IMG/VR virus record: IMGVR_UViG_3300042154_000876
Coordinates: 11,584 to 75,583 of that record
Length of the DNA: 64,000 bases
DNA from: a virus
Reading direction: 5' to 3' (one strand)
In this document: piece by piece, positions 2-24,137 of the stretch
How the letters are laid out: every line of letters begins with the position of its first letter
How positions within the stretch are numbered: position 1 is the stretch's first letter
Program-made: the position numbers and the translations under genes
The notes under the pieces: generated by a model
What the model saw: the letters and a program-made list of their open reading frames with translations, nothing else
Database searches by the model: none
Told to the model about the DNA's origin: nothing

Positions 2-3000
2 GCTGAGGCTATTATGAGCCTCTTCCCTCAGATGAGAATCCTATACGCGGTATTCAACAAAGAAAACCAAATGGAAGCTTTGGAGAAGATGCCAGATAAC
101 ACAGAGGCTAGAACCTCTGACTCTATCAGCGTTATGGCCAACGCCAACAATAAACTACGCGATAAGATGGACGCCTTATCTAAACAGGATGAACCTCACA
201 ACATGCCTGTTAACTTCTTCAGAGAAGCAGATATCGCTGATCTATTCGGTGTAAAGGATGTCACCCTATCTACAGGAAAAGATGTACCTCGCGAGCGCGT
301 AGCCGGAATCGCATCTGCTGCCTTACGAGCATGGATTCTATCCGATTCTATGAAGATTGATGCCAGTACTATTGACGCAATCTCCAGCCAGTTGAGTGAG
401 AAAGAGATGCCTCAGACAGCCGAGGACTACCGACCATTTATCCGACTTGTTCAGATGATGTGGGACGATGTTATTTCTGACCACGACCAGGATCGACGCC
501 AGCTAGTAGTCAACTTCAACCACCTATTCAAGAACTGGGCACTTACTCGCCCTGACCTGACTGAAGTAGATGGTTCTGGAAAGAGCATTCACGGTCTTAA
601 AAATGTCCCTGACTTCCTTTTCCTAGACGAAGCTCAGGATATTAACCCAGTATTCCGAAAAGTGATCGAAGACCAGTATACCCTTCACAAAAACGGTATT
701 GTTATGATTGCTGTTGGCGACAATAACCAGGCTATCTTTGGATTCCGCGGAGCAGAAGACGCTCTGAATATTGTAAAGCGAGACCTAACGCTACCTCTAA
801 CTAAGAGCTACCGAACTGGTCAGACCGTTCTAGATGCCGCTGCTAACAAGCTGCTAGCGATGCTAGGAGAGTCGTTAAGACTACAAGGTAAGGATGGTAA
901 CGGCACTAAGCTTGTTGACAATATGTCGCGAGAGAGGATCGATCTAGCCCTATCTCGAGGAACCGCCGCGATTCTAAAAGAAGCGATTGTGGTCGAGGAG
1001 ATGTTTGAGGGAGGTAGAATCGCTACCACCCTGAACTTCAAGCAAGAGCTACTAAACATGCTTAAAGCGATGACTTACCTACAGCGCGTGGACTACGTCA
1101 ACTATGCCAACGCTGAGGCACGTAAGAATGATCCAAATGCCGCGCCGATATTGCCACCTAAAAGACCTACAATACCTGGGGCATTGCTGGGCCTAAACTG
1201 GGAAACCATGTATGAGCTTCTGTCTGAAGGTAAGGGTGACCAATCTATTCAGCAGATTTGGAATGTTATCCGCGGTCACGCTAGCAAAAACAAAATTAAA
1301 ATCGGGCCAGCAATGTCTGACCTACTGAACAACATTGTTCCTAACCTTCGAGTAGTTAATCACGAGTTCCACCTTCCAGCCCAGCTAGATCCGATCGGGT
1401 CTCTCGGTGGAGGATTGGACTACGAGATTACAAAGGATAAGATTATTATCCGAGACGACCCATCCGCGGGCTTTAATGCTCGTAAGACGGCCATTAGCGG
1501 TGTCTACAATAACCGCAAGGTTCTCGAGGACTACGGGTTCTGGAACCCTAGCAAGGATCAGGCAACTGGACGATACGGTGGATTTGAGTGGGAAATCAAC
1601 CTATATGACGATGGGCGTGATCAGTTGCAGGACCTTGTCAAGGGTCTTCGCGGTGAGGACGCCATGTTCCGCATTATGACTGGTCACACCTCAAAGGGTC
1701 TGGAAGCCGATAACGTCAAGATTCTAGATGACTGGCTAGACCTAACGCCGTTCCTACCTGGTGGAGATGCTGAAAAGCAGAACGAACTGCTAGAACTGTT
1801 CCGCTCGCGTGGTCCAGACTTTGATCTTATGGAAGAGATCCGCTTGATGTATGTAGTCACTACTCGACCACGCACTGAACTTGATTTAGGTGGTTTGAAG
1901 TGGTTAAACAATCACTCACCTGAGCAACTTAAGGCTGCTGTTGATGAGATCCAAAAGCGACTAGCTATGGGATTCGGCGCAGTTGAGGAGGGCGTAGAGG
2001 TTAAGTCTCCAGAAGAGATTGAAGCCATCAAGAACCGACCAACTGGCGAAGATCTTTCTGGTCTACCTCCACGCACCGACTGGGAGGCAGAAAAAGCAGC
2101 AAAAGAGGAAAATAGTTGGAGGCTCAAGAACACTGAGGAGAGAACTAAGGAAGAGATTGGAGAAATCCCTAGGGATGGAAATCTTCCACTCAAGCCACGC
2201 TCCCGCGACAACGCTGAACTAGCCAAGTTGAAGGAAGAAAGGCGAGAGCTCGTCAGTAAGATTGCTACCGCTAAGAGTAAGGGCAAGGAGCCTAGCAAGG
2301 CCACCGAGCAAAAGTTAGCGGATGTAAATCAGAAGATTTCTGACATTGAGAATGCTGACAGTGTTGAAGAGTTTTCATCTAAAAAACGTCCAAGCTCTCC
2401 TAACTACCAGGATGAGTTTGATCGAAAGGTTGATGGTCTAAAGGCCGCTATTGCAACCGCTAAGGACATTCTAAACCTTGTGCCTGAAGACCGAACCGGA
2501 GACTTCAAGGGCTATGCTGACACCAACATCGAGGAAACTATCGCTGGACTACAAGAGGACCTAAATGCTCTGCTTGACAACCCAGACATGCTGGAGCGTG
2601 ATGACGAGGAAGACTACCGCATTGCCGAGCGTCTACTGGCTAAGCTGAATGCAGATAAGATGGCTAAACTAGACATGGGCGATCTGATGGATGCTCGTCG
2701 CATTGTGAAGAACAAGAGCGACATCACCGGAACTGATCAGAGCTTTGTCTATGGCACTACCCCACCTGTGTACCTCAACCGAGTAATGCTAGACGCACTA
2801 GAGAAGATGAAGGACCACCTGTATCGTAAGCTGAAGCACGACGAGAAGCTAGACTTCGCTCCTTATGTTTCGGACCAGGTCGAAGAGTCATCTTCTCCGG
2901 TAGAGAATATCTCTCCAGAGATGGAAAAGAAGCTCTACAACATTGTTGAAGAGGCTGCTAAGTTCTACAGCGACCGCTTGATGAACTTCAATGACCCAGG

Positions 3001-3931: not shown

Positions 3932-3945
3932 CCCCTCAGGTTTAT

Positions 3946-4023
3946 TGGTATACTTGTAAAAGACTAATCAATCGCGATAGTTACCCCGTTAATTTGACAA
4001 CTGCTAATTGACGGGGTATTATC
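3946..4023 (+). promoter_or_regulatory. SigA-type promoter(s) overlapped by an inverted repeat
   Basis: TTGACA (3994-3999)-17 bp-TATTAT (4017-4022); extended -10 TGGTATACT (3946-3954); arms TACCCCGTTAATT / AATTGACGGGGTA. Confidence 0.65.
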
Positions 4024-4051
4024 AAGGTGTTACGTTTCTATAAGGACCAGT

Positions 4052-4315: not shown

Positions 4316-4604
4316 GACTATGGAAGACAACTACGAAGAATACCAAGTAGACATGCATGTCATCACTGCTAGTGGTGGCAAGGATTTGAAGTTCCAGCTT
4401 AAGGACCTTACCGACGAGGAGCTTAATCAGCTCTATGAAGAGACTGGACTAGAAGAAGCCCGCCTCGCTTACCGCGAGCGTACCGGTGATGATCCAGCTA
4501 AAAACCTATGGATCTATGGACCAGAAGACTTTGCGTGGTTCCAGGACTGGTGTGACCGCAACCCAGAAAAGTTTGAGAAGTTGCGAGCCCAGTATGACGT
4601 TTAG
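4308..4604 (+). CDS. Small acidic hypothetical protein (paralog B); alternative ATG at 4320
   Basis: Shares LN.L..G..EAR....RTG.DP.K....PED....W...N.EK pattern with 4052-4315. Confidence 0.8.
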   Translation: MSRTMEDNYEEYQVDMHVITASGGKDLKFQLKDLTDEELNQLYEETGLEEARLAYRERTGDDPAKNLWIYGPEDFAWFQDWCDRNPEKFEKLRAQYDV

Positions 4605-7600
4605 CCCACTATTTTTCGAAGACCCAGAAGAGCCTATCGTTGCCGCTGCTCTAAAGAACGGCAAGGAGTGGGGCTACTGGGCTGACATGCAGCTACGCGA
4701 TCCAGGAGGAGAGCGCGGCGGTTGGTTCATCGAGATGGGTGGCCTTAACCTATTCAATGGTATGGGCAAGGACGGAAAAGTCCGCGCCTACAAGGGTAAG
4801 TACATCGGCCCTTCTCCGCTTGGTCAAGGCTACGGTCGATTCCTAGTTGAAGGCGGAGACGGCGTTGACCCCGGTATCTACCACGTAAACGTATCCAACA
4901 TCGACTCCGTTAAGGGAGTTCTTAGCGAAGAATATCTACGCAGCCTGGGTCGTGACGTTCCTGCTCAAAAAGAAGGTATCGTTGACCTATCCAAGACTCG
5001 CATTGACCCGATAACTGAGCAAGACCTACAAGACGCCAACATTGAGCCGGACAAGCCTAAGAACCTCAAGAAAGCTGCCAACGACCGCGGTCAATCAGCT
5101 AAAAAACTAAAGGACCTAAAAGACGGCGACATCCTCTACGACGAGGGCAACAAGCGATTTGGCGAGGTCGTTTCTACCGTAGATAAAGATGGAAACTTTA
5201 GCCCGTGGGTTAAATGGGAAGACAATCAGATTTCTCAGATTCCTAACGCTGACCCAGAAACCGAGACCGCCGTTTGGGCAGCTCCAGCTCCTGAAGTTGA
5301 TGAATCGGCAGCCCCTAAAAAGACCGTAAAGGGTAGAGACCTCAAGGTCGGAGACGTAATCCGCGCTTGGGACGAAAACCGCACTATTACGGCGATTGAG
5401 CCAGGGCGTGGGGGGGAGCGTTACTTTATTTTTGACACTCCTGATGAAGGAGAAGACGGTCCTGATGGAAAGTTTATCAACATCAATGAGGACGTCGAGC
5501 TTGGCCGAGAAGAGGCTCCAGTCGCCCCAGCCGCCCCTGTTGCTGCCGAAAAAACAAAATCTAACAAAGTTTCTGCCTCTGAAGTTAAAAAAGGTGACTC
5601 TGTTGTAATCAACGGAGAGACCTATACGGTTTCTAAAAAATCTAACAAAAAAGCTGATGGAGTGGTTATTGGCCACAAGATTGAGTTTAGGGCCGAAGAC
5701 GGCAGCACTTTTGAAGAAGAGTTCCTTTCAGACGACACTCTAGATATTCCTGCTGCAGAGACAGCAACAAAAGAAGAGAAGAAGACTCCGCGTGGGGTTC
5801 TCACTAGTTTTGTGAAAAACATGCAGCCGGGGGATGTTCTTATTGCTGGTAAAGACGATAAGCGTCAAGAGGTGCTTTTTGTATCTGCTGAACCTATACC
5901 TCCAGTAGACAATAATGATATTCGCAAACGTTATAATATTACAGTTCAACGTGCCGACGGTGGGCTTGAAACTATTGCAGTTGATGCTACGAATGGTATC
6001 CCGCAGTTGGCTGAAACTAATGCCAAAGGTAAAACTGAAAAGGTAAACCGTAAGGACCAACTTAAAGTAGTTCCATCCGCTCCTGCCACTACAACTACTA
6101 AAACCACTCGGACCACCACAAAAACTGCAGGTGACGAGGCCGGAACCACTACAACTACCACCCCGAGGGTTCGAGCACCTGAAGTAATCCCAACAACTCC
6201 GATGTCCACCAATCCAGGTGACACCGGAGAAGTTGTTAGGGGCGTCAACTACGAAATAATGCCTGACGGAAGAATCAAGTTTTCTCGCGGGCGTCTTAAA
6301 AAGGGTAGCCGGTCGTATGACTTAATTACAAAGGTTTTACCAGGCGAGATAACTAGATCTGGTAACGGAAAAGCTTTCGCATTTTTTGAAAAGCCAGAGG
6401 GTGGGGATTACGGAAACTGGTTTGTAAGATTCGAACCGATCAAAGATTCTAAAAAAGATCTGGCTAAGCAGTTTCTCGACAGCCTCCGTGCCGGCATGGC
6501 TAAGGAAAAGGTAGAGTCTTCTGAGGAGACCGGCTCATCCTTCTCTGGGGCTAAGAACACCAAGGGCAGCATCACTGATGCCGCGTCCTATGAGGTCGAC
6601 GAGAACGGTACTGTAAAGATTTCTGGCCTAACCGAAGAACAGGTTGACCTTGTTGTTCAGGCTATGTATACGGTTCAGGGAACCACACCACTTGACCGCC
6701 CTGGAAGCGTTTCAACCAAGGTTGACTCTGACAAAGATGAAGACCGCGCCGCTGTTCTAAAGGCTGTTAGTGATGCTCTTGGTGGAACTCCAGCTGCTAC
6801 AACTACCACTACCACTACTACCCCGGACTTTGACTCCTTACCCAAGACAAAAGCTGACCCGGAGGCGGCTCGTAAGGCCGGGTTTACAGTAGACAATGTA
6901 AAGCCAGTAGATATTCAAGTTGGAGACTACATTATCAGTCCAGTGGGGTACTGGACAAAGGTTGTTGGAGAGCCTAGTATAATTCCTGATCCAAGGAACC
7001 CAGGCGAGATTGCGTGGGCTATTCCTACTGAAAACTACAAGGGAGAGAGGTTTACTCAAGACGGTTTGGGAGACCTGAACCTAAGGATTGATCGAGTTCG
7101 TGGACCTAACCACGTAGATACGCCAGAAACTGCAGACGAGGCTTTTGATAAAGAGTCCGCTCCATTCCCTATGGACACCCTGAGGGATTTAAAAGAAGGC
7201 ATCTATGCCAAAGTCGACGGCATGTGGAAAAAGATTACCAAGGTCGGTAAGCCTCAGATAGATCCTAGTGTCGATACTGAATCCGTTGTAATAGAGTTTG
7301 AAGATGGGACAAAGAAAAGGGTAGACGAGCGAGACGGCCTTACTTTAGTCCGTAAGGTCCCTGAAGGTGAAGCCACGTCCACAGCGACAACCACCACTGA
7401 AGGTCTGACTACCGATCAAAGGCTGGCTAAGCTTTTATTCTTAGTAAAGGGTAGCGGTTCCGAGGACGCGGCTTGGAATGCATCCATAATGGGCGATGCT
7501 AGAAGATCTCTTGAAGCTGCTGGAATTGATGAAAATGATTTCCTAGACTATGCAGAAAAGTCCGGGGCCTCAGATCTGCGTCAACCTGATCTAGATAAGC

Positions 7601-13600: not shown

Positions 13601-16600
13601 TGCAGGACTACATGTCTAAGCAGGGTGGCGGACTTGGTGTCTACAACTCTACAGTTGGTTATGTCTCAGCTGAGACTCTCAGTTCGATGCGCGGCAATGA
13701 GCCTAAAGATCCGGACAGCGTGGCTCGCAAGGTTGAAGACCTACAGGACGGCGACGGATTCGACCAACCGGTAAGCGTCGTCTATAACCCTCGCACCGGT
13801 GAAGCTTATGTAGCCGACGGTAACCACCGCGTCCAGGCTTCGCTAGACGCTGGCGTTGCTTATGTACCTACAAGAGTCTTTATCATGGATGTTCCTCCTG
13901 CACAGGAGAACCCACAGATTAAGAAGTTGGAACGCGATGGCGGTCTACCTCTACCTGAGGGCGCAGATGAAGTTCACCCATACTTTGTCTTCAATAAAGA
14001 AGATCTAGTTAATGGAAAAGACCTATCTGACCCTAGCGTTGTTGAAGAAATGGCTTCTAACGTTGTTGTTTGGTCTGGTCGCGGTAAGGCTTCCGAGCGC
14101 AACCGCTCCGGAAGGTATGACCCAGACCCTAACAACATCTTTGAGCAGCTTGCCCCAGGCGAATACGTTATGGACAAGAAGACCAAAAAGATTTATCAGG
14201 TATACAGCCAAGACTTTACTACCGAAGTAGGCCAAGACGGTGTAGAAAGAGCCGTATTCACCGGGAAGATTGTTGTCCGAGAGTTTGAAGGCAACTTAGA
14301 TAACCTATCTAGAGTAAGAATCTCGACGCAGTTTGGCGATAACAATATCCGCTACGCTCAGGGTGGACAATCCTCTGCCGACGATTCATATAATGACGCT
14401 CGCTCATATATTGACGAGATTCGCGACCCAGCGGACTTTGAGAATGTTACTGACTCGTTTATAAAGCTCAGTGACCAGCCTATCCTTATCAGCGATACGA
14501 TGTACGTTGTTCAGACCGAGACCGGTATCAAGGGTCGAATCTCTAAGTTTGTCTCTCCTGGAGTAGTTAGACTTGATGTTCTAAAGGGATATAACGAGGA
14601 CGGCGAACCTCTCTATGATCAGATAGAGTCCCCGATAACCCAGCTTCTACCTATCCAGAACCAGCAGCAGGTCCCTAATGGACAGCCTGCTATGGAGCAT
14701 GCCCCTGATATGCAAATATCTAACTCTACCTGGGACTCGATCAACACCTTGTCCTCTACCCTGTTGAAGTGGGGCTACCTATCAGAAGATAAGTACAAGG
14801 CTATTCAGACCCTAGTTCACGGTAAGTTTATTACCCAAAGCGGTGCTCTGGACCTTGAGCGTTCGCTCAGAAACCACGACGTAGTTAGACGAGCAAAGAT
14901 TCGTGGCGTCGCAGTGAAGTCACCTGCCACTGGAGAACCTGTTGCACAGGCGCCTGTACAGCAAGCTGCCCCGTCTGCCCCTGCCGCGCCTTCAGTTGGC
15001 CAAGGCGAGGCCGGAGGTCGCTCATTTGAGCAGCTCCTAGAAATGAAGCGTGCTCGTAAGAAGGCAGATGCCGGGCTATCTGTAGAAGAGTTTGCATCTC
15101 CTGTCACAAAGATTAAGGTAACTAAGAACCCTCCTACCCAAAGCCAGATTCTAGAAGTAGAGCGTCTTCTTTCTGAAGACGGTGCGGTAACCCCGCAGCG
15201 TGCATTTGATATTCTATCTTCACTACCTACTCTAAATGCAGAAGCCACCGAAGCTGTACTAGAAGAGATCCGAGCAGATGTTCTCAACAAGAGGATTTCT
15301 AAGGATGAAAGCATCACTGGTCTTGTAGTTCCTAAGGGCTTTAATAGATCCAAAATCTCTGGATACCAGCCAGCCGTTGAGGAATCATCTACCGGCTTTG
15401 AGATCGATAGAGATGCGGAAGAGCCTAATGAAGACGGAGAGGTTAGCCCAGGAGCGAAGCCAGAAGAAGAAGGTCCTAAGATGTCGTTCAATGCTCAACA
15501 GAAGTCAGCTATTGACTCTGTAGTTAGCAGTGAAGGCGGCCTATTCTTTATCACTGGTGGTGCTGGTACTGGTAAGACCACTATTAAGAAGGAAATCGAC
15601 AAGCGCGAGAAGGCCAAAAATAGAAGGACTATGACCATTGCCCCTACGGGTAAGGCAGCCCTTCAGGCAGAGGGAGCTACCATCCACTCTACGTTCAAGA
15701 TTCCAGTAGGCCCTTTAACCGATTTTAGCCCGTCCGAGACTTACAACAAGAATATGGGTACTGCCAAGGGCCGTAAATCTATGGCTGCTTTGCGCACGGC
15801 AGACACCATCTTCATTGATGAAGTTTCTATGGTTCGAGCAGATCTGATGGATGCTATGGACAGGATGCTTAGGGTTGTCAAGGGAAACATGTCTGAGCCT
15901 TTTGGTGGAGCTAAGATTGTTATGCTTGGAGACTTGGCTCAGCTTCCTCCAGTAGGTATTGACTCTAGCCCTGAAAACCAGGGACCTCGCCAGCGATTCC
16001 AAGAGACTTATGCTGATGACTACTTCCTAAGTGCTAACTCATGGGCATCTTCGGCGTTTGAGGTTCACAACTTGACTGAGTCTATGCGTCAAAGCGCAGA
16101 GGATGATGCCTGGTTCGAGCAGTTCCTAAGGGAGAGGGCTCGATTCGCTGAGGTGACTCAGGAAGACATGGAGAAGCTGTGGGAGATTAGCGAAAAAAAC
16201 CGCAAGCGTGATGCTGAAGAGGGTGTCACATCCGAGCCTATCCACCTGGTGTCTACAAATGCTGCCGCAGACGAGATCAACAAGAAAAAGTTTGCTGAAC
16301 TTGAGGGTGAAGCAGTTAAATTTACTGCTACCATTGACGCTCCAGAAGGCTCTGACATTAAGCCGTTTGTTCGAAATGGCGGTCTACCTAAAGAGGAAAT
16401 GGAATACAAGATCGGTGAGCCGGTAATGTTTATCAAGAACGATGACGCACAGCAGCGCAAATCTGCTGGAGGCAACCTTCCGAACGAGTCCAGATGGGTA
16501 AACGGAAGTCAGGGCGTAATCACAAGATTTGAATATGCTGAAGGCGAAGATGGCCAGACCCCTATTGCTATCTATGTAAAGATTGGCGACAAGGAGCACC

Positions 16601-17370
16601 GAGTAGTTCCTGCCACATGGGAAGATGTAGAATACGGCGTATCTACCAAGATTGAAGAAGAGAAGAACATCGTTGAGGGACCTACTCAAGAAGTTTTGTC
16701 TACCTATACTCAGATTCCTTTGATGCCAGGATGGGCTATGACTACCCACAAGTCTCAGGGAGCCACTATGGACTCAGCTGTGGTCGACTATTCGATTAAG
16801 TACTCTGATAATGGAGATATTCTCACTCAAAATAGCCCTTTTGCTGCTGGACAGGTCTATGTAGCACTTAGCCGACTACGTAGCTCGAATGGTCTCTACT
16901 TGACTAGGAAGCTAAATAAAAATGACTTTATTAGAATCGAACGTAGCGTTACCGATTTCTTCAAGAATGTTGATGCTCAGACAGCCGCTAACCAGGTCTC
17001 CGAAAGTTCCGCTCCAAAGAAGTTTGACCCGCTAAAAGGATACATTTCTGAAGTAGATCTTGCTTCAGCCCTAGACAGCGGGGAACTCACCGGACCAGCT
17101 GGCCAGAACCTTACGGACTACCAGTCCACCGCTATCAAGAACAAACTCCGTCTGATGCGTGAAAATCCTAATAGTGCTGATCGTTATAGAGAAGAAATTG
17201 CTAAGCTAATGAACTCTTGGTTTGGTGTCGAGGAGCCTGGAGAAGAGATCCCTGCTGTAGCTGCCCCCATTGAGATCCGCATGGACAACTTCCGCGACCC
17301 GTCGGAACGTCAGGCCACAATAGACCTACTTACTAAGAGTGGTATTCCCTACACTTTGAAGTACGATTAA
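4594..17370 (+). CDS. Giant polyvalent protein (~4258 aa): SH3/KOW-like repeats, DEDDh exonuclease, two zincin peptidases, GNAT, ParB-like, Pif1/RecD helicase
   Basis: FDTETTG/QNVPFD/HSADAD; HEYGH and HEYAH each with downstream E..AE.F; LRHRGIATSLL; DGNHR; GGAGTGKT, DEVSM, GDLAQLPPV, HKSQG, YVALSR. ATG 4594 preferred because it overlaps the upstream stop. Confidence 0.9.
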   Translation: MTFSPLFFEDPEEPIVAAALKNGKEWGYWADMQLRDPGGERGGWFIEMGGLNLFNGMGKDGKVRAYKGKYIGPSPLGQGYGRFLVEGGDGVDPGIYHVNVSNIDSVKGVLSEEYLRSLGRDVPAQKEGIVDLSKTRIDPITEQDLQDANIEPDKPKNLKKAANDRGQSAKKLKDLKDGDILYDEGNKRFGEVVSTVDKDGNFSPWVKWEDNQISQIPNADPETETAVWAAPAPEVDESAAPKKTVKGRDLKVGDVIRAWDENRTITAIEPGRGGERYFIFDTPDEGEDGPDGKFININEDVELGREEAPVAPAAPVAAEKTKSNKVSASEVKKGDSVVINGETYTVSKKSNKKADGVVIGHKIEFRAEDGSTFEEEFLSDDTLDIPAAETATKEEKKTPRGVLTSFVKNMQPGDVLIAGKDDKRQEVLFVSAEPIPPVDNNDIRKRYNITVQRADGGLETIAVDATNGIPQLAETNAKGKTEKVNRKDQLKVVPSAPATTTTKTTRTTTKTAGDEAGTTTTTTPRVRAPEVIPTTPMSTNPGDTGEVVRGVNYEIMPDGRIKFSRGRLKKGSRSYDLITKVLPGEITRSGNGKAFAFFEKPEGGDYGNWFVRFEPIKDSKKDLAKQFLDSLRAGMAKEKVESSEETGSSFSGAKNTKGSITDAASYEVDENGTVKISGLTEEQVDLVVQAMYTVQGTTPLDRPGSVSTKVDSDKDEDRAAVLKAVSDALGGTPAATTTTTTTTPDFDSLPKTKADPEAARKAGFTVDNVKPVDIQVGDYIISPVGYWTKVVGEPSIIPDPRNPGEIAWAIPTENYKGERFTQDGLGDLNLRIDRVRGPNHVDTPETADEAFDKESAPFPMDTLRDLKEGIYAKVDGMWKKITKVGKPQIDPSVDTESVVIEFEDGTKKRVDERDGLTLVRKVPEGEATSTATTTTEGLTTDQRLAKLLFLVKGSGSEDAAWNASIMGDARRSLEAAGIDENDFLDYAEKSGASDLRQPDLDKLIEKYKADKGSTTTTATTTEESDKPTDEQRKTIDDLIAQIGDETNFTSKIVTAMLDSLTKESADMAIDMLKAAIANTTAPTTTTAPAQSVFTPGQIDSVNRRINLLTPEQQAKVKEAMESATPKTAKDIMSKIINTLDNAEIISRIRKGMPVDDILARRKTDTVGANLLFDLDRSPKEIAQRLATYKPTVNLDGTPIADAQQTTTTVSGDDTKSVSSLISDVIDSLAKDLQTKFGALKYRYSSKTPQNAEQAEKDHEIYLEYLSTVVPAVMQALKERLDSQTAAGNPDAQKNYDDAVSKLKQELWGQNRGAVYTSEAEKLVGSDRTKEMSDEANKALNDLLAGVKKPEKQVTTETTTKDTFGKIGTSGNLTGNVDYSIDKFGQIALTNAPEDFDARMAESRGLIIVTDNGKKSIVLTKNNDENRAAALNLIKERLEGPAPVTTKVETQTEVAQDVVTGQERPEGGVSKKISELNVGDRLYDEETESMATVVGVYEDPDRAGRIVLTIRFDDGREDSASYKKSYVVEAYPSPEAPAATTTTAEDVVGGEDADTSKTEAEVVEDSQVIVEQGESTTAEPGSTVLEEPDAEAVEPVEPKRKPRGPRKPRKVNLSDVSDEEREAFIRIFDALENFNRVEEEYGGKKYDSKWYIDEKDRKFDNKDVEELASQNTKGIGEDLGIQLMDSTTDAYEPGAFSSTRQPTPGAFTGRVARMVEGKTKAETRNILKGLKVSWFDTETTGISNFDGDPTNNDVVQVGIVNTQNGEVLERLNIYINPGVEDGVRLGKWATNNLVKDAVGEDGQPILGPDGKPTTEPITNEWLSEQMSIADAVQQIMDFMGRDPILGGQNVPFDLQVLQRMLDKAGVRGYRIGGTIDSKDLSEEFLPKYNEYEGTDGPKRFDKERNKFVPTSSLGYVAEFLGFGTTRWHSADADAEDAWKLASATMDRAASEDPTGTSDLMNQSAMRSRYTERMAKFLKTIDPRNPSTAKQHGAVRKEGFGEYLDDLGLSRDHQNALFDQIKQMTRGEAARFISTFIEANPLPKPSAKPSIQNRVLDLNQVTKNIKNLERLKSQPLPSALRDMGTVPTDTEEKIQHFNREFSDFLKKKYPDLTLGEIWSSRNSNIDVEKDFNYFSDLYQKTMSLPDSKVFGIGNATITAKDGILSKRDLAIVSNALEVLQERFSLGETPIDVRYMPQEELDRLAEKKNVTGSAYIDEDGAHIIISERTLGVYEKDGRSGKTGSVSAHLATVIHEYGHLVHALLLGSNFTEKEKADLAKEFQRRFKKTRVTDYGETSTAEKFAELFYDMEYSRIEGTEPAVPEFSEFMESIKGRKAAIKPSLLNRMGIKKPQARQMPPENTKPEFDGATKLSGANLAAFEGSSDSLRGSDQEAGYIPDPSDQKAFNEFRLQISLNPGDLVSEAQARIRFKKEIEKAKKDARRYEVLKVEGTNSYIRYKNGDASPEAIQQTIDQLRDLEDFNVAGGISQVVTLAKRETFSVGRLFATTQGTEEEIHGYSLLDSDKGIGHIVVDPDLVSESPGSVPGIAVGQYYANGGVDAQNMLKRTLVHEYAHNWAKVILGHRQQDSARFDEFVRSVVQRIQTSGGRSVHPISEIAEGGDGESFAEFFTAAFFQIVEGRMLPTKGSPLDQFIQFFAKYAGANVEPIIKNISPIVQVEESSSGGQRLKFPKNHEGAGSENVYLEYNRRREFYRNGLDPYGRPLSDARAAMIREYSSYIDKLESAYQSTMRAEDFDVMTSAMAALKRVYDSMFFAYAKNNSRFNVDTIGENIEANEQSFRSWTAPTSPLFLPESEGPFKNEITTGRYTDVDGISYPLVYISSTKADGRTYTATVALDPENTDFDLATANMDTLIEASVGKMITISDKEKTSQILDYISVDGDLRHRGIATSLLSFTRSNTTKKVLHKGKSAPDVSAWAQSVDSSEKSYESAPRAFDDASHVARHNRNAINLISDREPPQEIDTSSETLEAEALHYAGENYGNFYHPNLQDYMSKQGGGLGVYNSTVGYVSAETLSSMRGNEPKDPDSVARKVEDLQDGDGFDQPVSVVYNPRTGEAYVADGNHRVQASLDAGVAYVPTRVFIMDVPPAQENPQIKKLERDGGLPLPEGADEVHPYFVFNKEDLVNGKDLSDPSVVEEMASNVVVWSGRGKASERNRSGRYDPDPNNIFEQLAPGEYVMDKKTKKIYQVYSQDFTTEVGQDGVERAVFTGKIVVREFEGNLDNLSRVRISTQFGDNNIRYAQGGQSSADDSYNDARSYIDEIRDPADFENVTDSFIKLSDQPILISDTMYVVQTETGIKGRISKFVSPGVVRLDVLKGYNEDGEPLYDQIESPITQLLPIQNQQQVPNGQPAMEHAPDMQISNSTWDSINTLSSTLLKWGYLSEDKYKAIQTLVHGKFITQSGALDLERSLRNHDVVRRAKIRGVAVKSPATGEPVAQAPVQQAAPSAPAAPSVGQGEAGGRSFEQLLEMKRARKKADAGLSVEEFASPVTKIKVTKNPPTQSQILEVERLLSEDGAVTPQRAFDILSSLPTLNAEATEAVLEEIRADVLNKRISKDESITGLVVPKGFNRSKISGYQPAVEESSTGFEIDRDAEEPNEDGEVSPGAKPEEEGPKMSFNAQQKSAIDSVVSSEGGLFFITGGAGTGKTTIKKEIDKREKAKNRRTMTIAPTGKAALQAEGATIHSTFKIPVGPLTDFSPSETYNKNMGTAKGRKSMAALRTADTIFIDEVSMVRADLMDAMDRMLRVVKGNMSEPFGGAKIVMLGDLAQLPPVGIDSSPENQGPRQRFQETYADDYFLSANSWASSAFEVHNLTESMRQSAEDDAWFEQFLRERARFAEVTQEDMEKLWEISEKNRKRDAEEGVTSEPIHLVSTNAAADEINKKKFAELEGEAVKFTATIDAPEGSDIKPFVRNGGLPKEEMEYKIGEPVMFIKNDDAQQRKSAGGNLPNESRWVNGSQGVITRFEYAEGEDGQTPIAIYVKIGDKEHRVVPATWEDVEYGVSTKIEEEKNIVEGPTQEVLSTYTQIPLMPGWAMTTHKSQGATMDSAVVDYSIKYSDNGDILTQNSPFAAGQVYVALSRLRSSNGLYLTRKLNKNDFIRIERSVTDFFKNVDAQTAANQVSESSAPKKFDPLKGYISEVDLASALDSGELTGPAGQNLTDYQSTAIKNKLRLMRENPNSADRYREEIAKLMNSWFGVEEPGEEIPAVAAPIEIRMDNFRDPSERQATIDLLTKSGIPYTLKYD

Positions 17371-17463: not shown

Positions 17464-20400
17464 ATGAGTGATTCAGAAAAAGACCCTATGTATTTGGGAA
17501 ACTCTGGATCCCTTGCGCTCTTTGCGTTAGGTGAGAAAGCCGTAGTAATTGATACTACCCACAACTTAGTTGTAAAATCTGGCACTGTTTCTGAACTCTC
17601 CGCATCTAACGACTGGGACGAGAGTTCTTCAGAGCAAAGTGCCGTAAGCCTGGAACTAGCTAGCGCATCCTTGATTGACCTAGACATTAAAGTTGTTACA
17701 GCGGGTGGATCCAGTAGGATGTACACCATTCCTAAGGGTGCAAAAGCTGAAGCTGAAAAAGCACTTGAATGGCGAAAAGAAGAAAAGCGTGGCGGCACTC
17801 CCGTTGGTTTGAATACTGCTCGCACGCTTGCACGCGGTGGGCAGATCGGAATCGAGAAGGTTCGCCACATTGCCAAGTATTTCCCTCGTCACGAAGTTGA
17901 CAAAAAGGGTAAAGGCTGGAGACCAGGCGAGGATAACTTCCCTAGCAACGGCCGTATCGCATGGGCACTTTGGGGTGGGGACGTAGCATGGCGCTGGGCT
18001 CAGGCCATTGTTGAGCGTGAAGACAAGAAGCCTAGAACTGCTTCAGTAGCCGGGCCAGACCTAGAGTCTTTCAATAAAGCTATGAATTTGGACTATGCCT
18101 CAGCACCAGAGTTCCTAGTTCGTGTTCGTATGGATGGTTCTGGAATAGACCGACTATATAAAGTTGACCTAGACGGCTCAATCTATGTTTGGGATGACGG
18201 CTGCTGGGATGACCTGGGCAGTATTCAGGGCGATGTCTATGTATATGACAAAGCACTAGACGACCCATATGACCTAGTTGAAAAAGCTCACGTTCCTATT
18301 GACCCGGACTCAGCCATTATTGTTGCTGCGAAACAACACCAGAGCCCTGATCGCTACATCTCTGTTGCAGAGATTGACGCTGAAGAAGCCGCTCTAACTA
18401 TGTTTGCTGCAAACGAACTTGACTGGAAGTTCATTGACTACACGATGACCGCTGCTGGCGTTAATCCAACCGACAACATCTATAGCCCAGAAGAGCGCTC
18501 TCAGAATGCAACCGCTCAGAGACGCAACACAGGTGGTAGGTTTGCTCCTCAGGGTAGCAAGTCCGGCGCTTCCGCTCAGCCTAATGCTGTTGGAAGTCAG
18601 GGCGGACAGCTTGAAGACTCTCTACCTCTCACCGACTTTGACCAGCCTCTAGATGTCTCTGGAATCCTAGGTGAGCCACGCACTCCTATTGATCAACCTT
18701 ACGCTCAGCTGGACGGAACCCTGCCAGCAATGACAAAGGACGATCTACATGACGTTCTTTACAACTGGCCAGCTTGGGTCCAGGAGCAGCGTTCATCTTT
18801 TAAGCCTCTTGCTGCTGCAGGCTCTGAAGAAGAAAAACCTGAAGAAACAGAAGAGCCTGAAGACGAAGAAGTATATAACCACCCGCTGTTAAAGCGTTGG
18901 CGTTTAAACACAAAGCGTCGTAAGGATGACCAGCCTAATAGTGATTGGGCTAGTCCGATCGTGGCCGCGCCTGTCGCATCGAAATCAGAAGCAGTAAAGT
19001 CAAAGAAACTTACTCCAGAAACTTCAGATGTAAAGCCGCTATATTTTGCGGTTGTTGCAGAAGATGACCCGCGTGCTGTATTGGACCTGATCTCGATTGT
19101 ACCGGCCAGTTCTACTTCTAACTCGCCTATGGCATACAAGCGTGATAAGGGCAAGTGGGTTCGCGATGAGGCTACAATCAATGACCTAAAATCTGCCACT
19201 CCTCCTCCAGTAATCCCTCTAGACAGCAAGACTCTAAACGAAGTTCTTCTTCAGGTAGACGATGCTACTATGACTGCGTCCGGCGTCTTTAGTGTTGACC
19301 ACCTACTCATGGTTTTGTGGGGGCCTCAGCAGGAAATCATTGATACCTACGGCGATGCGTTCTTTGAGGTTGTAGACAAAAACAACGATTTTGACGCCAA
19401 TCTCAAAGCAGTTTTTTCTGTAGTAGCTGCAGGCGGTTTGGACCGTAACAGGGGGCAAGCGGAGAAGCTTCGCAAGTATTGGACCGTCGGTAAGGGTGCT
19501 GCAAAGATCCGTTGGGGGATGGGCGGCGACTGGTCTCGCTGCGTTAAGAACCTATCGAAATACATGGGCCCTCGCTCAAAGGGATACTGTGCCCTCCGCC
19601 ACAAGGAGATGAATGGTGTTTGGACTGGAGACAAACGTCACCGTCAAGTCTATGGTCGCAAGAAGGGTGGGTCACGCGGCCTATTCAGCACCGAGTACAT
19701 TAACTCTACCGCTCAGACTATTGACAATGCTCTAATTGCAGCCAAGGCCGATGATGCTCGCGAGCGTTTCGGTATTGTGGCTACCGGGCTACCTGAGAAT
19801 GGTTCTAAGTTCTACATCCCACTACTCATCCCTGAGGGTATGGAGTCCGGCGATGGTCGAAAGTTTAAGAAGGGCTCTATCACATGGAGAGATCTTCCTC
19901 TACCGCTTTTGTGGCAGATTAAAACTGCTGATGGACATGATGGCTCCGTTGTTGTTGGCCGTATTGACAGCATTGAGCGCGTGGAAGATGGTTTAGGGAA
20001 TGCCTATGGCATGTTCGACACCGGAGCGTATGGTCGAGAGGCAGAACGCCTAGTTCGTAACGGATTTATCCGTGGTATTTCAGCTGATATGGATCAGTTT
20101 GAAGCAACAGAAGAAAAAGAAGACGTAAGCCCAGAAAACTCTGAAAAAGATGATAAGCACGTAGGAAAGAAGAAGATTACTATAAATAAAGCACGCGTAA
20201 TGGCTGCTACAATAGTACCTAAGCCCGCTTTCCAAGAATGCTCTATCACACTAATAGAGGGTGGCTTACCGACTACCCAGGAGGACACTATGATTCCTGA
20301 TGGAATCTATGTAGACGACGTAGACGCTGCAGATGCCGAGGCACTAGTTGCCTGCGGTATGGTTGCCGGCGCTATCCCTGTCGTCCCACCACGCGAGTGG

Positions 20401-21966
20401 TTCGATAACCCACGACTGAAGAAAGCTACCCCGCTGACAGTTGATGACAATGGCCGTGTATATGGCCACATCGCCTCATGGGACACCAACCACATTGGTC
20501 TAGCTTATGGCACTAAACCTCCTCGTAGTCGTAGCAACTACGGTTACTTCCACACCGGTGTTTGCCGCGCCGACGATGGTTCAGATGTTCCAGTAGGTCA
20601 GCTAACTCTTGCTGGCGGACACGCTTCTCTAGAGGCTTCTGCCATGGAAGCGGTCAAGCACTACGACGACACTGGCTCTGCAATCGCAGACGTTCACGCT
20701 GGTGAAGATGCTTACGGCATCTGGGTATCTGGAGCATTACGTCCATCCGCTCAGCCTGAACAGATCCGCGCACTACGCGCATCTGCTCCTTCAGGTGACT
20801 GGCGACCAATCCGCGGTGGGCTTGAGCTTGTTGCAGTTTGTCAGGTAAACGTTCCTGGATTCCCAATCGCTCGCGCTCGTGTTGCTTCTGGTGCTGTTAT
20901 GGCTCTAGTTGCTGCAGGTGCCGCCACTCTAGCTAAACTAAAGGCTGATCCTGTTGCCGAAATGCAGGCTCGAATCAGCAAGCTGGAGCGAATCACTACT
21001 CCGAAAGAAGAACTTGAAGCCCGTGTAGCGTCTCTCAAGGCTAAGGTTGACGAAGCCAAGACCGAGTTTGGCTACATCTCTCGTGATGAGCGTATGAAGT
21101 TGGCTGAAGAAGGCAAAGCCTTAGACGACGGCTCTTACCCGATCCGTGACGTTGAAGACCTTAAAAACGCTATTCAAGCTTACGGTCGTTCGAAAGAGTC
21201 AGACCGCGCTAAAGTTCGCAAGCACATTGAAAAGCGTGCTCGTAAGCTAAACGTCCGTCACCTAGTTCCCGAAGAGTGGAAGACAGCTGCATCTGATGCT
21301 GTCACTGCAAGTGCTGAAGACCTGAAGTCTCGTCTACTTGCGGCTCAGGAGGCCCTGGGAAAAACCTTCGCGGTTGAGGACATGATTCCTGAAGAAGAAG
21401 TAGTAGACCAGATTGTTGAAGACATTGAAGACGGTGCTCCAGCAGTAAGAGGATACAAATTCACTCCAGGAAAGAATCAACCGCGTGACATAGAGGGACG
21501 CTTCCGTCAGGTTCTAGCTCGCTTGAGCCAAGACCTAGGCGACTCCGGTCTACAGGATGTAGTAGAAAAGATTAAAGAAGTAGAAAACATCACAGGTCTT
21601 GGTGACTACTCGGATGCGGCTAAGGCCGGCAGCGAGCTTCTAAACATTCTGGACCGACTAGACGAAGGCTCCCTAAACAAAGTTTCACTAGAGAATGTAC
21701 GTTCAACGGCTGCAGAGCTTGGCAAAGTAATCTCTAATCTACCGCTACCTTTTACCAACCAAGCGCAAAAGGTACGCTTCTCAGATCTTCCTCCAGCACT
21801 TAAAGACCTTATGGAAAATATGGTCGAGAGGGTGGAGAAGAAAATAGGTAAAGATGACGCAGCTGAGGCTACGGAAGAACTGAAGGGCTTTATGTCCGGA
21901 AGTGACCTCTATAGCCAATCGGACATCTCTTCGCAGATGGCTCGAATGCTACGCCTACTTACCTAA
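17464..21966 (+). CDS. Capsid maturation protease multidomain protein
   Basis: Directly upstream of capsid gene; protease-like domain GHDGS..VGRI..GISAD..ATIVPKPAF and a second domain GGHA..GIWVSG..SGDWR..VNVPGFP; extra head-associated modules. Confidence 0.8.
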   Translation: MSDSEKDPMYLGNSGSLALFALGEKAVVIDTTHNLVVKSGTVSELSASNDWDESSSEQSAVSLELASASLIDLDIKVVTAGGSSRMYTIPKGAKAEAEKALEWRKEEKRGGTPVGLNTARTLARGGQIGIEKVRHIAKYFPRHEVDKKGKGWRPGEDNFPSNGRIAWALWGGDVAWRWAQAIVEREDKKPRTASVAGPDLESFNKAMNLDYASAPEFLVRVRMDGSGIDRLYKVDLDGSIYVWDDGCWDDLGSIQGDVYVYDKALDDPYDLVEKAHVPIDPDSAIIVAAKQHQSPDRYISVAEIDAEEAALTMFAANELDWKFIDYTMTAAGVNPTDNIYSPEERSQNATAQRRNTGGRFAPQGSKSGASAQPNAVGSQGGQLEDSLPLTDFDQPLDVSGILGEPRTPIDQPYAQLDGTLPAMTKDDLHDVLYNWPAWVQEQRSSFKPLAAAGSEEEKPEETEEPEDEEVYNHPLLKRWRLNTKRRKDDQPNSDWASPIVAAPVASKSEAVKSKKLTPETSDVKPLYFAVVAEDDPRAVLDLISIVPASSTSNSPMAYKRDKGKWVRDEATINDLKSATPPPVIPLDSKTLNEVLLQVDDATMTASGVFSVDHLLMVLWGPQQEIIDTYGDAFFEVVDKNNDFDANLKAVFSVVAAGGLDRNRGQAEKLRKYWTVGKGAAKIRWGMGGDWSRCVKNLSKYMGPRSKGYCALRHKEMNGVWTGDKRHRQVYGRKKGGSRGLFSTEYINSTAQTIDNALIAAKADDARERFGIVATGLPENGSKFYIPLLIPEGMESGDGRKFKKGSITWRDLPLPLLWQIKTADGHDGSVVVGRIDSIERVEDGLGNAYGMFDTGAYGREAERLVRNGFIRGISADMDQFEATEEKEDVSPENSEKDDKHVGKKKITINKARVMAATIVPKPAFQECSITLIEGGLPTTQEDTMIPDGIYVDDVDAADAEALVACGMVAGAIPVVPPREWFDNPRLKKATPLTVDDNGRVYGHIASWDTNHIGLAYGTKPPRSRSNYGYFHTGVCRADDGSDVPVGQLTLAGGHASLEASAMEAVKHYDDTGSAIADVHAGEDAYGIWVSGALRPSAQPEQIRALRASAPSGDWRPIRGGLELVAVCQVNVPGFPIARARVASGAVMALVAAGAATLAKLKADPVAEMQARISKLERITTPKEELEARVASLKAKVDEAKTEFGYISRDERMKLAEEGKALDDGSYPIRDVEDLKNAIQAYGRSKESDRAKVRKHIEKRARKLNVRHLVPEEWKTAASDAVTASAEDLKSRLLAAQEALGKTFAVEDMIPEEEVVDQIVEDIEDGAPAVRGYKFTPGKNQPRDIEGRFRQVLARLSQDLGDSGLQDVVEKIKEVENITGLGDYSDAAKAGSELLNILDRLDEGSLNKVSLENVRSTAAELGKVISNLPLPFTNQAQKVRFSDLPPALKDLMENMVERVEKKIGKDDAAEATEELKGFMSGSDLYSQSDISSQMARMLRLLT

Positions 21967-22000
21967 AATCAACAAAACAAAAACAATGTACAATTGTTTA

Positions 22001-22097
22001 TAGGTGGAGTGCCTTCATGCGCCCGTGCATGTAGTCCCTTTACCTTGACCCAAGCGGTGGGAGAAGTACTCCCACTCAACTGTCCTTAGGAGGATCA
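22001..22097 (+). promoter_or_regulatory. Structured 5' leader and RBS of major capsid gene
   Basis: TACAAT at 21989-21994; stems 22002-09/22038-45, 22016-20/22027-31, 22057-63/22069-75; AGGAGG 22088-93. Confidence 0.5.
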
Positions 22098-24137
22098 GTG
22101 GACCAGATCAAGTCGCAGGTTGATAGCCTGTCTGAGCTGAACGACGAACAAGTCGCAGCTCTACAAGAAGCTATCGTAGGCGAGTTTGAATCGTTCGAGT
22201 CCCAGGAGACTTCTGTCGAGTCAGTTGACGCTATGACAACCCTAGCCGATATGCTGGACACCGTCAAAGGTGAAGTTCAGCGCCGCGAGGCAGCTATGCA
22301 GGAGCTCACATCTCGAGCTGCTGAAGCTGCAATGCGTGTAAAGGGCGAGGATGTCCAGGAGGATGGCATGGAGGAAGAAATTCCTGCCGAGCCAGCCGAA
22401 GACATGCCTATGGAAGAAGATGGCGAAATGCCTGAAGCTCCAGAGGTAGTTGAAGAAGCTCCTGCAGAAGAGGACGAGGAAAAGAAGAAGAAAGACATGA
22501 AGTCTTATTCCACCACCGAGTCTGCTGACGCGTCTACTACTGCGATCGAAGGTTCTGAGTTTTCGAACGAAGAAGAAATCGCTGCTGAAACTGTAGTTGA
22601 GGAAGCTGTGGCTGAAGAGCCAGCTGCTGACGAAGCTGTTGAAGAAGCAACCCCAACAGAAGCTGTAGAGCTTTCTGTTGAAACCGAAGAAACCACCGTG
22701 GTTTCGGAGGAGGTCGTTGAGACCGAAGCTGAAGTTGAGACAGAGTTCTCGGCAGAAGCAGAAACAATTGAAACCGATAACGCTCTAGTAGTAGAGCAGG
22801 AAGAGCAGGCCCCCGTGACCGCCGCAGCAGAACAGCCTTTCGAGGCCCCAGCTGACCGTCAGCCTGTACTCCAGGTTTCGGAGCCAGCTAAGGTAGCAAT
22901 TACCGCTGGTGCCGACATTCCTGGCTACACCGCTGGCAGCACCATCAATGACATGTACGAAGTAGCTTCGGCTATGGAAAAGCGTATCCACTCGCTTCGT
23001 CGTGTTAACGGTGGAGATGGAGAGCAGCACATCGTTGCTTCCCTAACCACTCAGTACCCAGAGGAGCGCACCCTCGGAACCAACCCAGAAGAGAACCAGG
23101 CTAAGATTGATGCCGTTGTAGGCCAGGAAGCACTTGTTGCTTCTGGTGGTCACGCTGCACCATTCGAGGTTAAGTACGACATCTACGGTATTGGTTCGAC
23201 TACTGTCCGCCCACTTCGCGACTCGCTTCCGAAGTTCCAGGCTGACCGTGGTGGTGTACGCTTCGTAACCCCACCTAGCTTTGCAGCTGGTACCTACGAC
23301 AACGCTGTTAGCGTATGGACCTCAGCAAACGACTCAGCTGAAACTCCTAGCCCAGCAGCTAAGAGCTCGTTGACCGTTACTGCCGCTGCCGAGCAGACCG
23401 CTCAGACTGACGCTGTAACCTTGCAGCTACAGTTCGGTAACCTAATGACCCGTGCCTACCCAGAGCTAATCTCTCGTCACAACGAGCTAGCTCTAGTTCA
23501 GCACGCTCGTGAGGCTGAAGAGTACCTAGTAAGCAAGATCAACTCAGGTTCGACTGCTGTTACAACCACCAACCTAATCGGTTTTGGTCGTGACTTCCTA
23601 GTTCAGATCCGCCGCGCTGCAGTTGCTTACCGTAGCCGTCACCGCATCGACCCAAGCACTCAGCTACAGGCTGTAATTCCTTTCTGGGTGTACGATGCTA
23701 TGGCTGCTGACCTAACCCTATCGATGCCTGGTGACGGAACCCTTTCGGTTGCTAAGTCAGAAATCGACGGTTACCTATCGCACAGCAACGTTACCATCAC
23801 CCCTGTTATGGACAACACAAACAGCACTTCGCCTTCTTCGGTCTTTGGATCGCAGTCGGCTGCAGCTCTGCTTGAGTTCCCAGACAGCTTCAAGTGGTTC
23901 CTATTCGCTGAGGGTACATTCTTGTTCCTCGACGGTGGTACTCTTGACCTAGGTATCATCCGCGACAGCACACTAGTCGGTACAAACGACTACAAGATGT
24001 TCATCGAAACCTTCGAAGGTATCGCAAAGGTAGGTATCGAGTCTCTCGCTATCACCTCGACCATCTCGATCAACGGTGTTGCTGCTGCACTACGCGACAC
24101 CACAGGCAACACTGCTGCCGCTACTATCGAGCTCTAA
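22098..24137 (+). CDS. Major capsid (hexamer-type) protein with acidic N-terminal scaffold-like region
   Basis: GTG with AGGAGG; LVASGG..APFEVKYD, RGGVRF, LDLGIIRDS..NDY motifs resembling cluster-B actinophage capsids; high-expression codon usage. Confidence 0.88.
   Translation: MDQIKSQVDSLSELNDEQVAALQEAIVGEFESFESQETSVESVDAMTTLADMLDTVKGEVQRREAAMQELTSRAAEAAMRVKGEDVQEDGMEEEIPAEPAEDMPMEEDGEMPEAPEVVEEAPAEEDEEKKKKDMKSYSTTESADASTTAIEGSEFSNEEEIAAETVVEEAVAEEPAADEAVEEATPTEAVELSVETEETTVVSEEVVETEAEVETEFSAEAETIETDNALVVEQEEQAPVTAAAEQPFEAPADRQPVLQVSEPAKVAITAGADIPGYTAGSTINDMYEVASAMEKRIHSLRRVNGGDGEQHIVASLTTQYPEERTLGTNPEENQAKIDAVVGQEALVASGGHAAPFEVKYDIYGIGSTTVRPLRDSLPKFQADRGGVRFVTPPSFAAGTYDNAVSVWTSANDSAETPSPAAKSSLTVTAAAEQTAQTDAVTLQLQFGNLMTRAYPELISRHNELALVQHAREAEEYLVSKINSGSTAVTTTNLIGFGRDFLVQIRRAAVAYRSRHRIDPSTQLQAVIPFWVYDAMAADLTLSMPGDGTLSVAKSEIDGYLSHSNVTITPVMDNTNSTSPSSVFGSQSAAALLEFPDSFKWFLFAEGTFLFLDGGTLDLGIIRDSTLVGTNDYKMFIETFEGIAKVGIESLAITSTISINGVAAALRDTTGNTAAATIEL

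Follow-up and report, generated by a model that had tools for sequence, protein, structure and literature searches.

A lineage-specific linker peptide in two giant, putatively cleaved phage proteins

What use does a phage make of two proteins of 3000-4000 residues, each a string of unrelated enzymes, and why does one short peptide recur between their modules? The question is raised by the 64,000-nucleotide stretch of virus DNA analysed here (hereafter the window), which comprises bases 11584-75583 of a 75.6-kb phage contig (IMG/VR record IMGVR_UViG_3300042154_000876; L003). The two proteins, giant A and giant B, are encoded upstream of the gene for protein C, which carries the prohead (head maturation) protease. 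A preliminary description had read them as packaged polyproteins cut at a recurring VEE-x-[SA]-[ST] linker. We find that the peptide marks most linkers of both giants, that the marked positions are kept in related phages, and that the motif itself is exchanged lineage by lineage. The motif is likely to be a protease site, as judged from these sequence patterns. On balance we lean towards the whole reading, in which A and B are polyproteins that are cut at the linker peptide by an embedded zincin, packaged, and ejected.

Linker peptides of giants A and B

All eight hexapeptides listed in the preliminary description are in place, in both giants, and VDESAA at the end of the conserved N-terminal module of B joins them (Table 1). 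Giant A has three further sites (VEESAA, VEEMAS, and VEESSS) in its 5′ part, which precedes the window. The consensus of the giants' linkers is V-[E/D/S]-E-x-[S/A]-[S/T/A], and it is present at most of them. In accordance with the earlier account, domain matches place the sites between recognisable domains: UvrD, the second HExxH domain, and the DGNHR (ParB-like) block are each followed by one, DnaG and the DEDDh exonuclease are each preceded by one, and Pif1 is flanked by two.

The strict pattern VEE.[SA][ST] occurs seven times in the giants, compared with 0.05 expected and a maximum of two in 5000 shuffles. The relaxed pattern V[ED]E.[SA][STA] occurs 11 times in the two giants, compared with 0.17 expected from shuffles. 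The anticipated enrichment over shuffled sequence is therefore borne out, and chance or composition is rejected as its source. When words are counted without a preset pattern, VEE..S ranks first among those enriched in the giants, poly-Thr and low-complexity tracts aside. The relaxed pattern has no match in the other 50 genes of the contig (17,054 amino acids, aa) or in the other open reading frames (ORFs) of at least 30 aa in six frames. VSELSA in protein C was considered as an extra site and rejected, since the homologues of C do not conserve it.

The codons vary between the motif copies in this genome, indicating that selection acts on the peptide, as had been proposed. A DNA-level signal, such as an internal ribosome-binding site or a start codon, is rejected: the codon variation extends to the Ser and Arg families, and no start codon is positioned at a fixed distance.

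AlphaFold2 models place the sites in disordered linkers between confident domains. In the model of B 2200-2730, two folded domains are joined by a disordered connector and followed by a disordered tail, which holds the VEESSS of aa 2709 (predicted local distance difference test, pLDDT, <30). The four sites of the B 3150-4294 model (aa 3186, 3533, 3631, and 4171) fall in stretches with pLDDT <50 (model residues 1-64, 375-398, 481-516, and 1017-1030). These stretches separate four confidently modelled units, namely a beta-rich module, a small helical module, Pif1, and a C-terminal module. Because only 15-20% of the modelled residues have a pLDDT that low, the placement of 5/5 modelled sites there is unlikely to have arisen by chance, and the sites do map to structure-predicted domain boundaries.

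Table 1 Sites, domains, and genes in the window. Residues of giant B are numbered on the 4294-aa ORF that begins at GTG 4486.
Feature	Position in window	Strand	Protein, residue	Remark
VEEFSS	2363..2380	+	A aa 2642	after the UvrD module
VEESSS	2879..2896	+	A aa 2814	39 aa before the DnaG_N domain
VDESAA	5296..5313	+	B aa 271	end of the conserved N-terminal module; absent from the preliminary description
VEELAS	9580..9597	+	B aa 1699	before the DEDDh exonuclease
VEESSS	12610..12627	+	B aa 2709	disordered tail directly after zincin 2, pLDDT <30
VEEMAS	14041..14058	+	B aa 3186	after the ParB-like block, pLDDT <50
VEEFAS	15082..15099	+	B aa 3533	pLDDT <50
VEESST	15376..15393	+	B aa 3631	before Pif1, pLDDT <50
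VSESSA (degenerate)	16996..17013	+	B aa 4171	after Pif1, pLDDT <50
Giant A, C-terminal 1309 aa	2..3931	+	A	from ORF, Pfam, and Cys count
UvrD-type helicase module	~227-1882	+	A	Pfam
172-aa spacer module		+	A	between the UvrD-type and DnaG modules
DnaG primase/Toprim module	~2996-3664	+	A	Pfam
Giant B	4594..17370	+	B	4258 aa from ATG 4594; 4294 aa from GTG 4486
Zincin domain 1	11083..11577	+	B aa 2200-2364	HEYGH at aa 2287; downstream Glu-containing AEKFAE segment
Zincin domain 2	11680..12561	+	B aa 2399-2692	HEYAH at aa 2602; downstream GESFAEFF
Protein C (1500 aa)	17464..21966	+	C	conserved N-terminal half; prohead protease ~aa 786-1200; coiled C-terminal part
Major capsid protein (679 aa)	22098..24137	+		acidic N-terminal region of ~260 aa

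The same joints in related phages

A protein search with giant B retrieves giants of 4100-5300 aa at 29-46% identity, and a scan of viral contigs finds 24 loci with the same gene order. Five genomes, of which three are complete (132-138 kb), supply longer stretches. Within the clade nearest to this phage (38-50% identity), the sites occupy the same alignment columns as V-E-E-x-[SA]-x, with one member drifting to VE[QD]M and another having SEER there. De novo word counts give each of about ten related lineages its own recurrent word in the giants (Table 2). The words have 6-20 copies each, compared with 0.02-1 expected, figures that are somewhat inflated by the choice of the words after viewing the data, though the margins are very large. 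In this genome and eight relatives, the lineage words have no copy in portal, protein C, capsid, or neighbouring proteins. Conservation among homologous phage contigs, on which the earlier proposal depended, thus holds for the positions of the sites; the motif itself is swapped from lineage to lineage.

Individual joints illustrate the exchange. Depending on the lineage, the end of the N-terminal module of B reads VDESAA, VEEMAA, EQEMAG, QLMAF, PSQSRE, or GPSPKEE, and the joint before the last module of A reads VEESSS, GPSQNRE, GPSPKEE, or GPSPKEEG. The position of the site after Pif1 (16996) is kept in homologues as VSESA, IMESSV, or SEERSV. One word at many sites per genome, with another word at the same sites in a sister genome, is the pattern that would be expected from a single trans-acting recogniser changing its specificity.

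The PSQNRE and PSPKEE sites use both Ser codon families (TCN and AGY) and both Arg families (CGN and AGR), indicating selection on the peptide in these lineages as well. The degenerate DNA pattern for PSQNRE has 11 matches in G001, a complete genome of 137.5 kb, all within the two giants, with none on the reverse strand and none in the control.

Three lineages (L017, L014, and L007) encode the corresponding modules in several genes of 1000-1600 aa, and two genes, matching C aa 10-449 and 493-1500, take the place of the one for protein C. Since the modules exist there as separate genes, the giant chains are assemblies of separable units. Split-gene lineages keep motifs of their own (KPxPDA and NIxPDAEG), including copies ~13 aa from an N-terminus and 3 aa from a C-terminus. 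The homologues of B comprise 5983 aa in G001 (L036/L037), 6850 aa in G002 (L038/L039), and 6256 aa in G004 (L041), with the lineage motif on either side of every extra module. The last module of A in G001 and G002 has the ArdC-type HELTHSTG…RLDR zincin signature and stands where the phage of the window has the DnaG primase.

Table 2 Recurrent words of the giants in related lineages. Some were counted under shorter or looser patterns: PSPK[EQ] in G002, QEM[AS] in L025, [QM][LF]M.[FY] in L006, KP.PDA in L017, NI.PD in L007, and DEM.D in P0016.
Lineage	Word	Copies
G001, G004, P0019	(G/N)PSQNRE	16 in G001
G002	(T)GPSPKEE	20
G003	GPSPK[EQ]E	13
L025	EQEM[AS]	7
L006	[PQ][LF]M.[FY]	9
P0006	SEER (SEE[RM] in the count)	7
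L027, L005, P0009	P[IV]VD[RK]	6 in L027
L017	KP[AT]PDA[DE]	8
L007	NI.PDAEG	7
P0016	DEM[AS]D	7

Candidate enzymes for linker cleavage

In the reading we favour, A and B would be chains of independently folding modules joined by disordered linkers. A sequence-specific, phage-encoded endopeptidase would bind the linker peptide and cut at or beside it, with the scissile bond presumably in its immediate neighbourhood, and would release ~14 products of 98-1428 aa. Enzyme and sites would change together, giving each related lineage a private motif at the same joints. The cutter would most likely be an HExxH zincin of B (zincin 2, window 11680-12561). If the motif is a cleavage site, a zincin is a better than even choice for the enzyme that reads it.

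The models of both zincin domains of B match only zincin peptidases. In zincin 2, residues H2602, E2603, H2606, E2655, and E2659 are invariant across nine homologues. Its structural matches include the catalytic domain of lethal factor (Z 9.1; 212 aligned, root mean square deviation, rmsd, 5.0), PPEP-3 (Z 8.9; 185/215 aligned, rmsd 4.2), and PPEP-2 (Z 8.2), and Foldseek returns PPEP-3 with a probability of 0.99 and a template modelling (TM) score of 0.54. Zincin 1 matches the N-domain of lethal factor (Z 8.5), and also Spartan, IrrE/PprI, and minigluzincins. The two zincins cross-match by hidden Markov models (HMMs) cut from alignment A3, which carry contaminating insert columns of full-length rows. 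The motif read by PPEPs has six residues, close paralogues among these enzymes differ in hexapeptide specificity, and the substrates of PPEP-1 carry many repeated sites (PMC10413326). Going by the models, zincin 2 is the best candidate for the linker-cutting endopeptidase, and zincin 1 is a candidate for a processing peptidase or a degenerate paralogue.

G001 and G002, whose motifs differ, are 23-49% identical in the HExxH-bearing segments, which rank with the most divergent parts of B in that comparison; between G001 and G004, which share a motif, the identity there is 75-93%. Giants without any HExxH, namely gp73/74 of the cultured Microbacterium phage Big4, the giant of the cultured Actinomycetia phage DSL-LC01, and the L012 giant, have no discrete motif.

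The preliminary description had cited prohead proteases as a precedent for such processing, and the best surviving alternative is that the protease of protein C cuts the linkers inside the procapsid, as T4 gp21 or the phiKZ and SPN3US proteases do. Protein C matches the PHROG head maturation protease (E 3e-57 at aa 967-1168) and related PHROGs, with a weak match to Pfam S78 (E 0.005), and its homologues are annotated as capsid maturation protease. Its gene lies directly 3′ of the giants, and several of the motifs contain Glu (VEE, PSQNRE, PSPKEE, and EQEM). Known prohead proteases process head-internal and ejection proteins at short motifs ending in Glu; the AXE of SPN3US is stable across phiKZ-like phages (PMC10052503). 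Such stability over much larger divergence is at odds with the exchange seen here. G001 (PSQNRE) and G002 (PSPKEE) have different residues at half of the motif positions, and their identity is 85% for C and 88% for the capsid protein, compared with 71% for A and 63% for B. In the protease region of C they are 85-94% identical, a divergence no greater than that between G001 and G004, a pair with a common motif. In addition, acidic residues are missing from some lineage motifs (Q[LF]M[AS]F and KAIF), and others are proline-based (KPxPDA).

The capsid protein itself points the same way. Its N-terminal extension (window 22098-22900, aa 1-270) is probably a propeptide with a prohead-protease site, a second processing code that appears constant across lineages: the propeptide and junction …PVTA[AT]AEQPFEAPADRQPV.[QE]V[ST]E…AITAGADIPGY are the same in all lineages. 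The giants' motifs are absent from C and the capsid protein in every lineage examined. The EFS and ELS tripeptides of the capsid N-terminal region, which had been counted as related sites, are kept unchanged in lineages whose giants use quite different motifs, and that relation does not hold. A prohead-protease substrate motif would be expected to occur in capsid protein, scaffold, or protease as well as in the cargo and to stay stable while the protease is conserved; the motif of the giants does neither. Because C and the capsid protein are 85-88% identical across motif classes and free of the motifs, the recogniser is more likely an embedded zincin than the prohead protease, and we regard the latter as an unlikely cutter. 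Of the original polyprotein proposal, the recognition peptide at module boundaries stands, with its positional conservation, lineage-wide replacement, selection at the peptide level, restriction to the giants, and location in disordered linkers. That the prohead protease reads this peptide is improbable, given the conserved, motif-free C and capsid and the one invariant capsid junction.

Less likely again is that the motif is left uncut and serves as a short linear motif, bound or modified by a phage or host partner (scaffold or portal docking, a chaperone, phosphorylation, or glycosylation). Disordered linkers are the typical location of such motifs, some variants resemble kinase sites (S-P-x-K in GPSPKEE), and the poly-Thr linkers of B suggest modified or extended spacers. 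However, each genome has 12-22 copies, with exactly one at every module joint, those beside the termini included. Chemically unrelated motifs are swapped while portal, C, and capsid stay 85-88% identical, which makes a conserved structural partner improbable, and the occurrence of the same modules as separate genes in related lineages argues that they function as separate proteins.

Cutting by a host protease, with the lineage motifs reflecting different hosts, is highly improbable. The hosts of these uncultured lineages could differ, but close genomes (A 71% and C 85% identical) carry different motifs, the six- to seven-residue words are absent from all other phage proteins, and the giants themselves encode peptidase-like domains. 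That the recurrence is a functionless by-product of acidic-linker composition, or of duplication or gene conversion of linker DNA, has a negligible chance of being correct: VEE is also present in acidic low-complexity parts of the capsid N-terminus, but the excess over shuffled sequence is >60-fold, the codons vary, the flanks are unrelated, and the positions are kept at 38-50% identity while the motif is replaced lineage-wide.

Several observations weigh against the zincin-cut polyprotein reading. The zincins are assigned by fold and motif only; Z scores of 8-9 are middling, and aminopeptidases score close behind. All Pfam matches for the zincins of the window are below threshold; ATLF has no match to them, and reaches E 0.046 (13.9 bits, compared with a cut-off of 27.4) for the G001 homologue only. 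AlphaFold2 did not dock the VEESSS tail into the zincin cleft in the B 2200-2730 model, where the tail is simply disordered. The link between zincin and motif comes from a small sample with exceptions, since P0013, P0014, and P0018 have two HExxH each and no sharp motif by a crude word count, and the fast divergence of the zincin segments could equally reflect cassette replacement, mimicking co-evolution. The cultured members examined (Big4 and DSL-LC01) carry no motif. B aa 274-1701 has poly-Thr linkers in place of the motif, so that some joints are unmarked. Finally, the V-[E/S]-E of this lineage resembles the invariant capsid junction QVSEPA, and a contribution of the prohead protease is possible in this lineage.

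Delivery of the giants, gene order, and known systems

Cysteine is avoided almost completely in the giants. Giant A has none in 3163 aa, and the ORF of giant B has one, upstream of the probable start at ATG 4594, giving one Cys in 7457 aa (none after the probable true start), compared with 0.73% in the rest of the contig. The homologous giants examined have 0-4 Cys each in 2000-6850 aa. We infer that the avoidance reflects selection against disulfides in proteins of an extracellular particle that are threaded through a narrow channel. The first ~237 residues of B are the best-conserved block of the protein. A search of 1.84 billion representative proteins finds this block in just 17 clusters, with members of 847-6004 aa, and always at the N-terminus; a weak copy of the module is present in the N-terminal region of A (blastp E 2e-4). 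In every relative, the giants are encoded between the portal gene and the protease gene.

Gene position, the shared N-terminal module, and cysteine avoidance together point to giants that are packaged in the head and ejected with the DNA, a proposal that we find marginally probable on this evidence. The giants would enter the procapsid and later pass through the tail together with the DNA, supplying the enzymes for its early processing. A chain of 3000-4000 aa, which could not be delivered whole, would be reduced by cutting to threadable pieces.

The gene order is portal, a Dps-like fusion, giant A, two small acidic ORFs, giant B, protein C, major capsid protein, and then major tail and adaptor genes. 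The portal gene occupies contig 2144-3931 (PHROG E 7e-102). Directly 3′ of it, contig 3945-6017 encodes a 691-aa protein in which a Dps/ferritin-like DNA-binding domain (PHROG 3636, E 2e-19) is fused to Cys-rich CGNC-type modules; it has 13 Cys (12-15 in homologues), in sharp contrast to the adjoining giants. Full-length giant A is encoded at contig 6023-15511 and starts 5.5 kb upstream of the window. The two small acidic ORFs (window 4052-4315, 87 aa, and 4308-4604, 98 aa) fill the 555-nucleotide (nt) gap between the giants, and a gap of 430-800 nt is present in all related loci. The second small ORF overlaps GTG 4486, and homologues of B begin at the position of ATG 4594; therefore, giant B probably starts at the latter. 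In protein C, aa 1-650 (window 17464-19400) are 57-58% identical to distant lineages and have PHROG matches only to families with no assigned function. Judged by protein C (44-52% identity), this phage is closest among named ones to Actinomycetia phage DSL-LC01 and to the Microbacterium phages Big4, Zooman, and Pumpernickel.

From its N-terminus, giant B consists of an address-like module, a 1428-aa poly-Thr-rich region, a DEDDh exonuclease, the two zincins, GNAT-like and ParB-like (DGNHR) blocks, a beta-rich module, a 98-aa helical module, the Pif1 helicase, and a 121-aa tail (all on the + strand). The GNAT-like and DGNHR motifs are invariant in homologue alignments. The poly-Thr-rich region (window 5305-9588, aa 274-1701) is the longest motif-free stretch; TTTT occurs 14 times, compared with 0.1 expected, and no family is found in it. 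Its tracts may be a second kind of spacer, uncut or modified. The catalytic or binding domains of the giants comprise two RNase_T, UvrD, DnaG/Toprim, and PIF1 (Pfam), an exonuclease (PHROG), and two zincin folds (models); A and B together have two DEDDh exonucleases among their modules. Most inter-site fragments have no family match in Pfam and PHROGs, and neither resource shows a MuF domain in A, B, or the 691-aa protein beside them.

If the linkers are cut, tailed double-stranded DNA (dsDNA) phages would have a true polyprotein strategy on an undescribed scale, with ~14 products here and >20 in relatives. Such cutting would explain how proteins of 3000-6850 aa are delivered through the tail channel, and functional units could be read directly from the sequence in thousands of unannotated phage residues. 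Motifs that differ by lineage imply that a protease and many sites have co-evolved repeatedly, which offers a tractable natural system in which to study specificity change. More tentatively, and as not quite an even prospect, a family of uncultured tailed phages may encode the early enzymes that it injects within one or two polyproteins of 3000-6850 aa, with a private protease-site pair per lineage and an embedded zincin whose hexapeptide specificity has been re-set repeatedly together with all 12-22 sites. It would amount to the polyprotein approach of RNA viruses at work in dsDNA phages. The family could then be a natural library of orthogonal protease-site pairs for biotechnology, of the kind of tobacco etch virus (TEV) protease. 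Ejected phage proteins could perhaps be predicted simply from a near-total lack of cysteine.

Polyproteins of eukaryotic viruses yield many products at short consensus sites through a virus-encoded protease that co-evolves with them, as with picornavirus 3C, potyvirus NIa, African swine fever virus pp220 and pp62 (cut by pS273R), and the adenovirus protease. Those viruses, their protease folds, and the purposes of their products (replication and core proteins) are different from the ones considered here. To our knowledge, no equivalent of this strategy has been published for tailed dsDNA phages, and we find no description of lineage-specific junction peptides in phage giant proteins in the literature.

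The T4 protease gp21 (L/I-x-E) and the phiKZ gp175 and SPN3US gp245 proteases (A/S/G-x-E) likewise act on head-module proteins with short recurring motifs, which are cut before or during maturation and later ejected (PMC10052503, PMC5694885). In those systems, one three-residue motif is common to capsid protein, scaffold, and cargo and is stable across distant relatives. The motif of the giants, in contrast, has five to seven residues, is absent from capsid and protease, and changes between close relatives whose prohead proteases are 85-94% identical.

Peptidase family M34 (lethal factor and PPEP-1/2/3), which provides the best structural matches, at middling scores, consists of HExxH + Glu zincins that read a linear motif of about six residues (PMC10413326). 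The zincins of giant B have no significant sequence similarity to them, and the apparent likeness is in fold only. In addition, M34 enzymes are secreted by bacteria, cut host or cell-surface proteins, and are not embedded in polyproteins.

The P1 Dar proteins (DdrB and DarB) and the N4 virion RNA polymerase are very large proteins that are packaged in the head and injected, and DdrB is processed as well as packaged (PMC5512222). The giants resemble them as very large phage proteins with metallopeptidase (MPTase) and ParB-type domains. Neither system is known to have a multi-site code: in P1 there is a single processing event with no repeated motif known, and the N4 polymerase is packaged uncut.

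The closest likeness in architecture is to the polyvalent proteins, for which zincin MPTase domains are predicted to carry out processing and delivery with the DNA is proposed (Iyer, Burroughs, Anand, de Souza & Aravind 2017, PMC5512222). As in those proteins, many unrelated domains are joined in one phage polypeptide, including helicases, a primase, nucleases, ParB, GNAT, and a zincin MPTase, with ArdC in the relative G001. The position of the giants among portal, protease, and capsid genes may be a further likeness. The giants are far larger (3163-6850 aa, compared with 2-15 domains), form a conserved pair, have no detectable MuF, and are cysteine-free. That study defines no cleavage sites, and the word "linker" is absent from it, whereas here the junction peptide is discrete, conserved in position, and replaced by lineage. 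The giants qualify as polyvalent proteins, with the HEYGH and HEYAH domains of B as the zincin-like MPTase hub.

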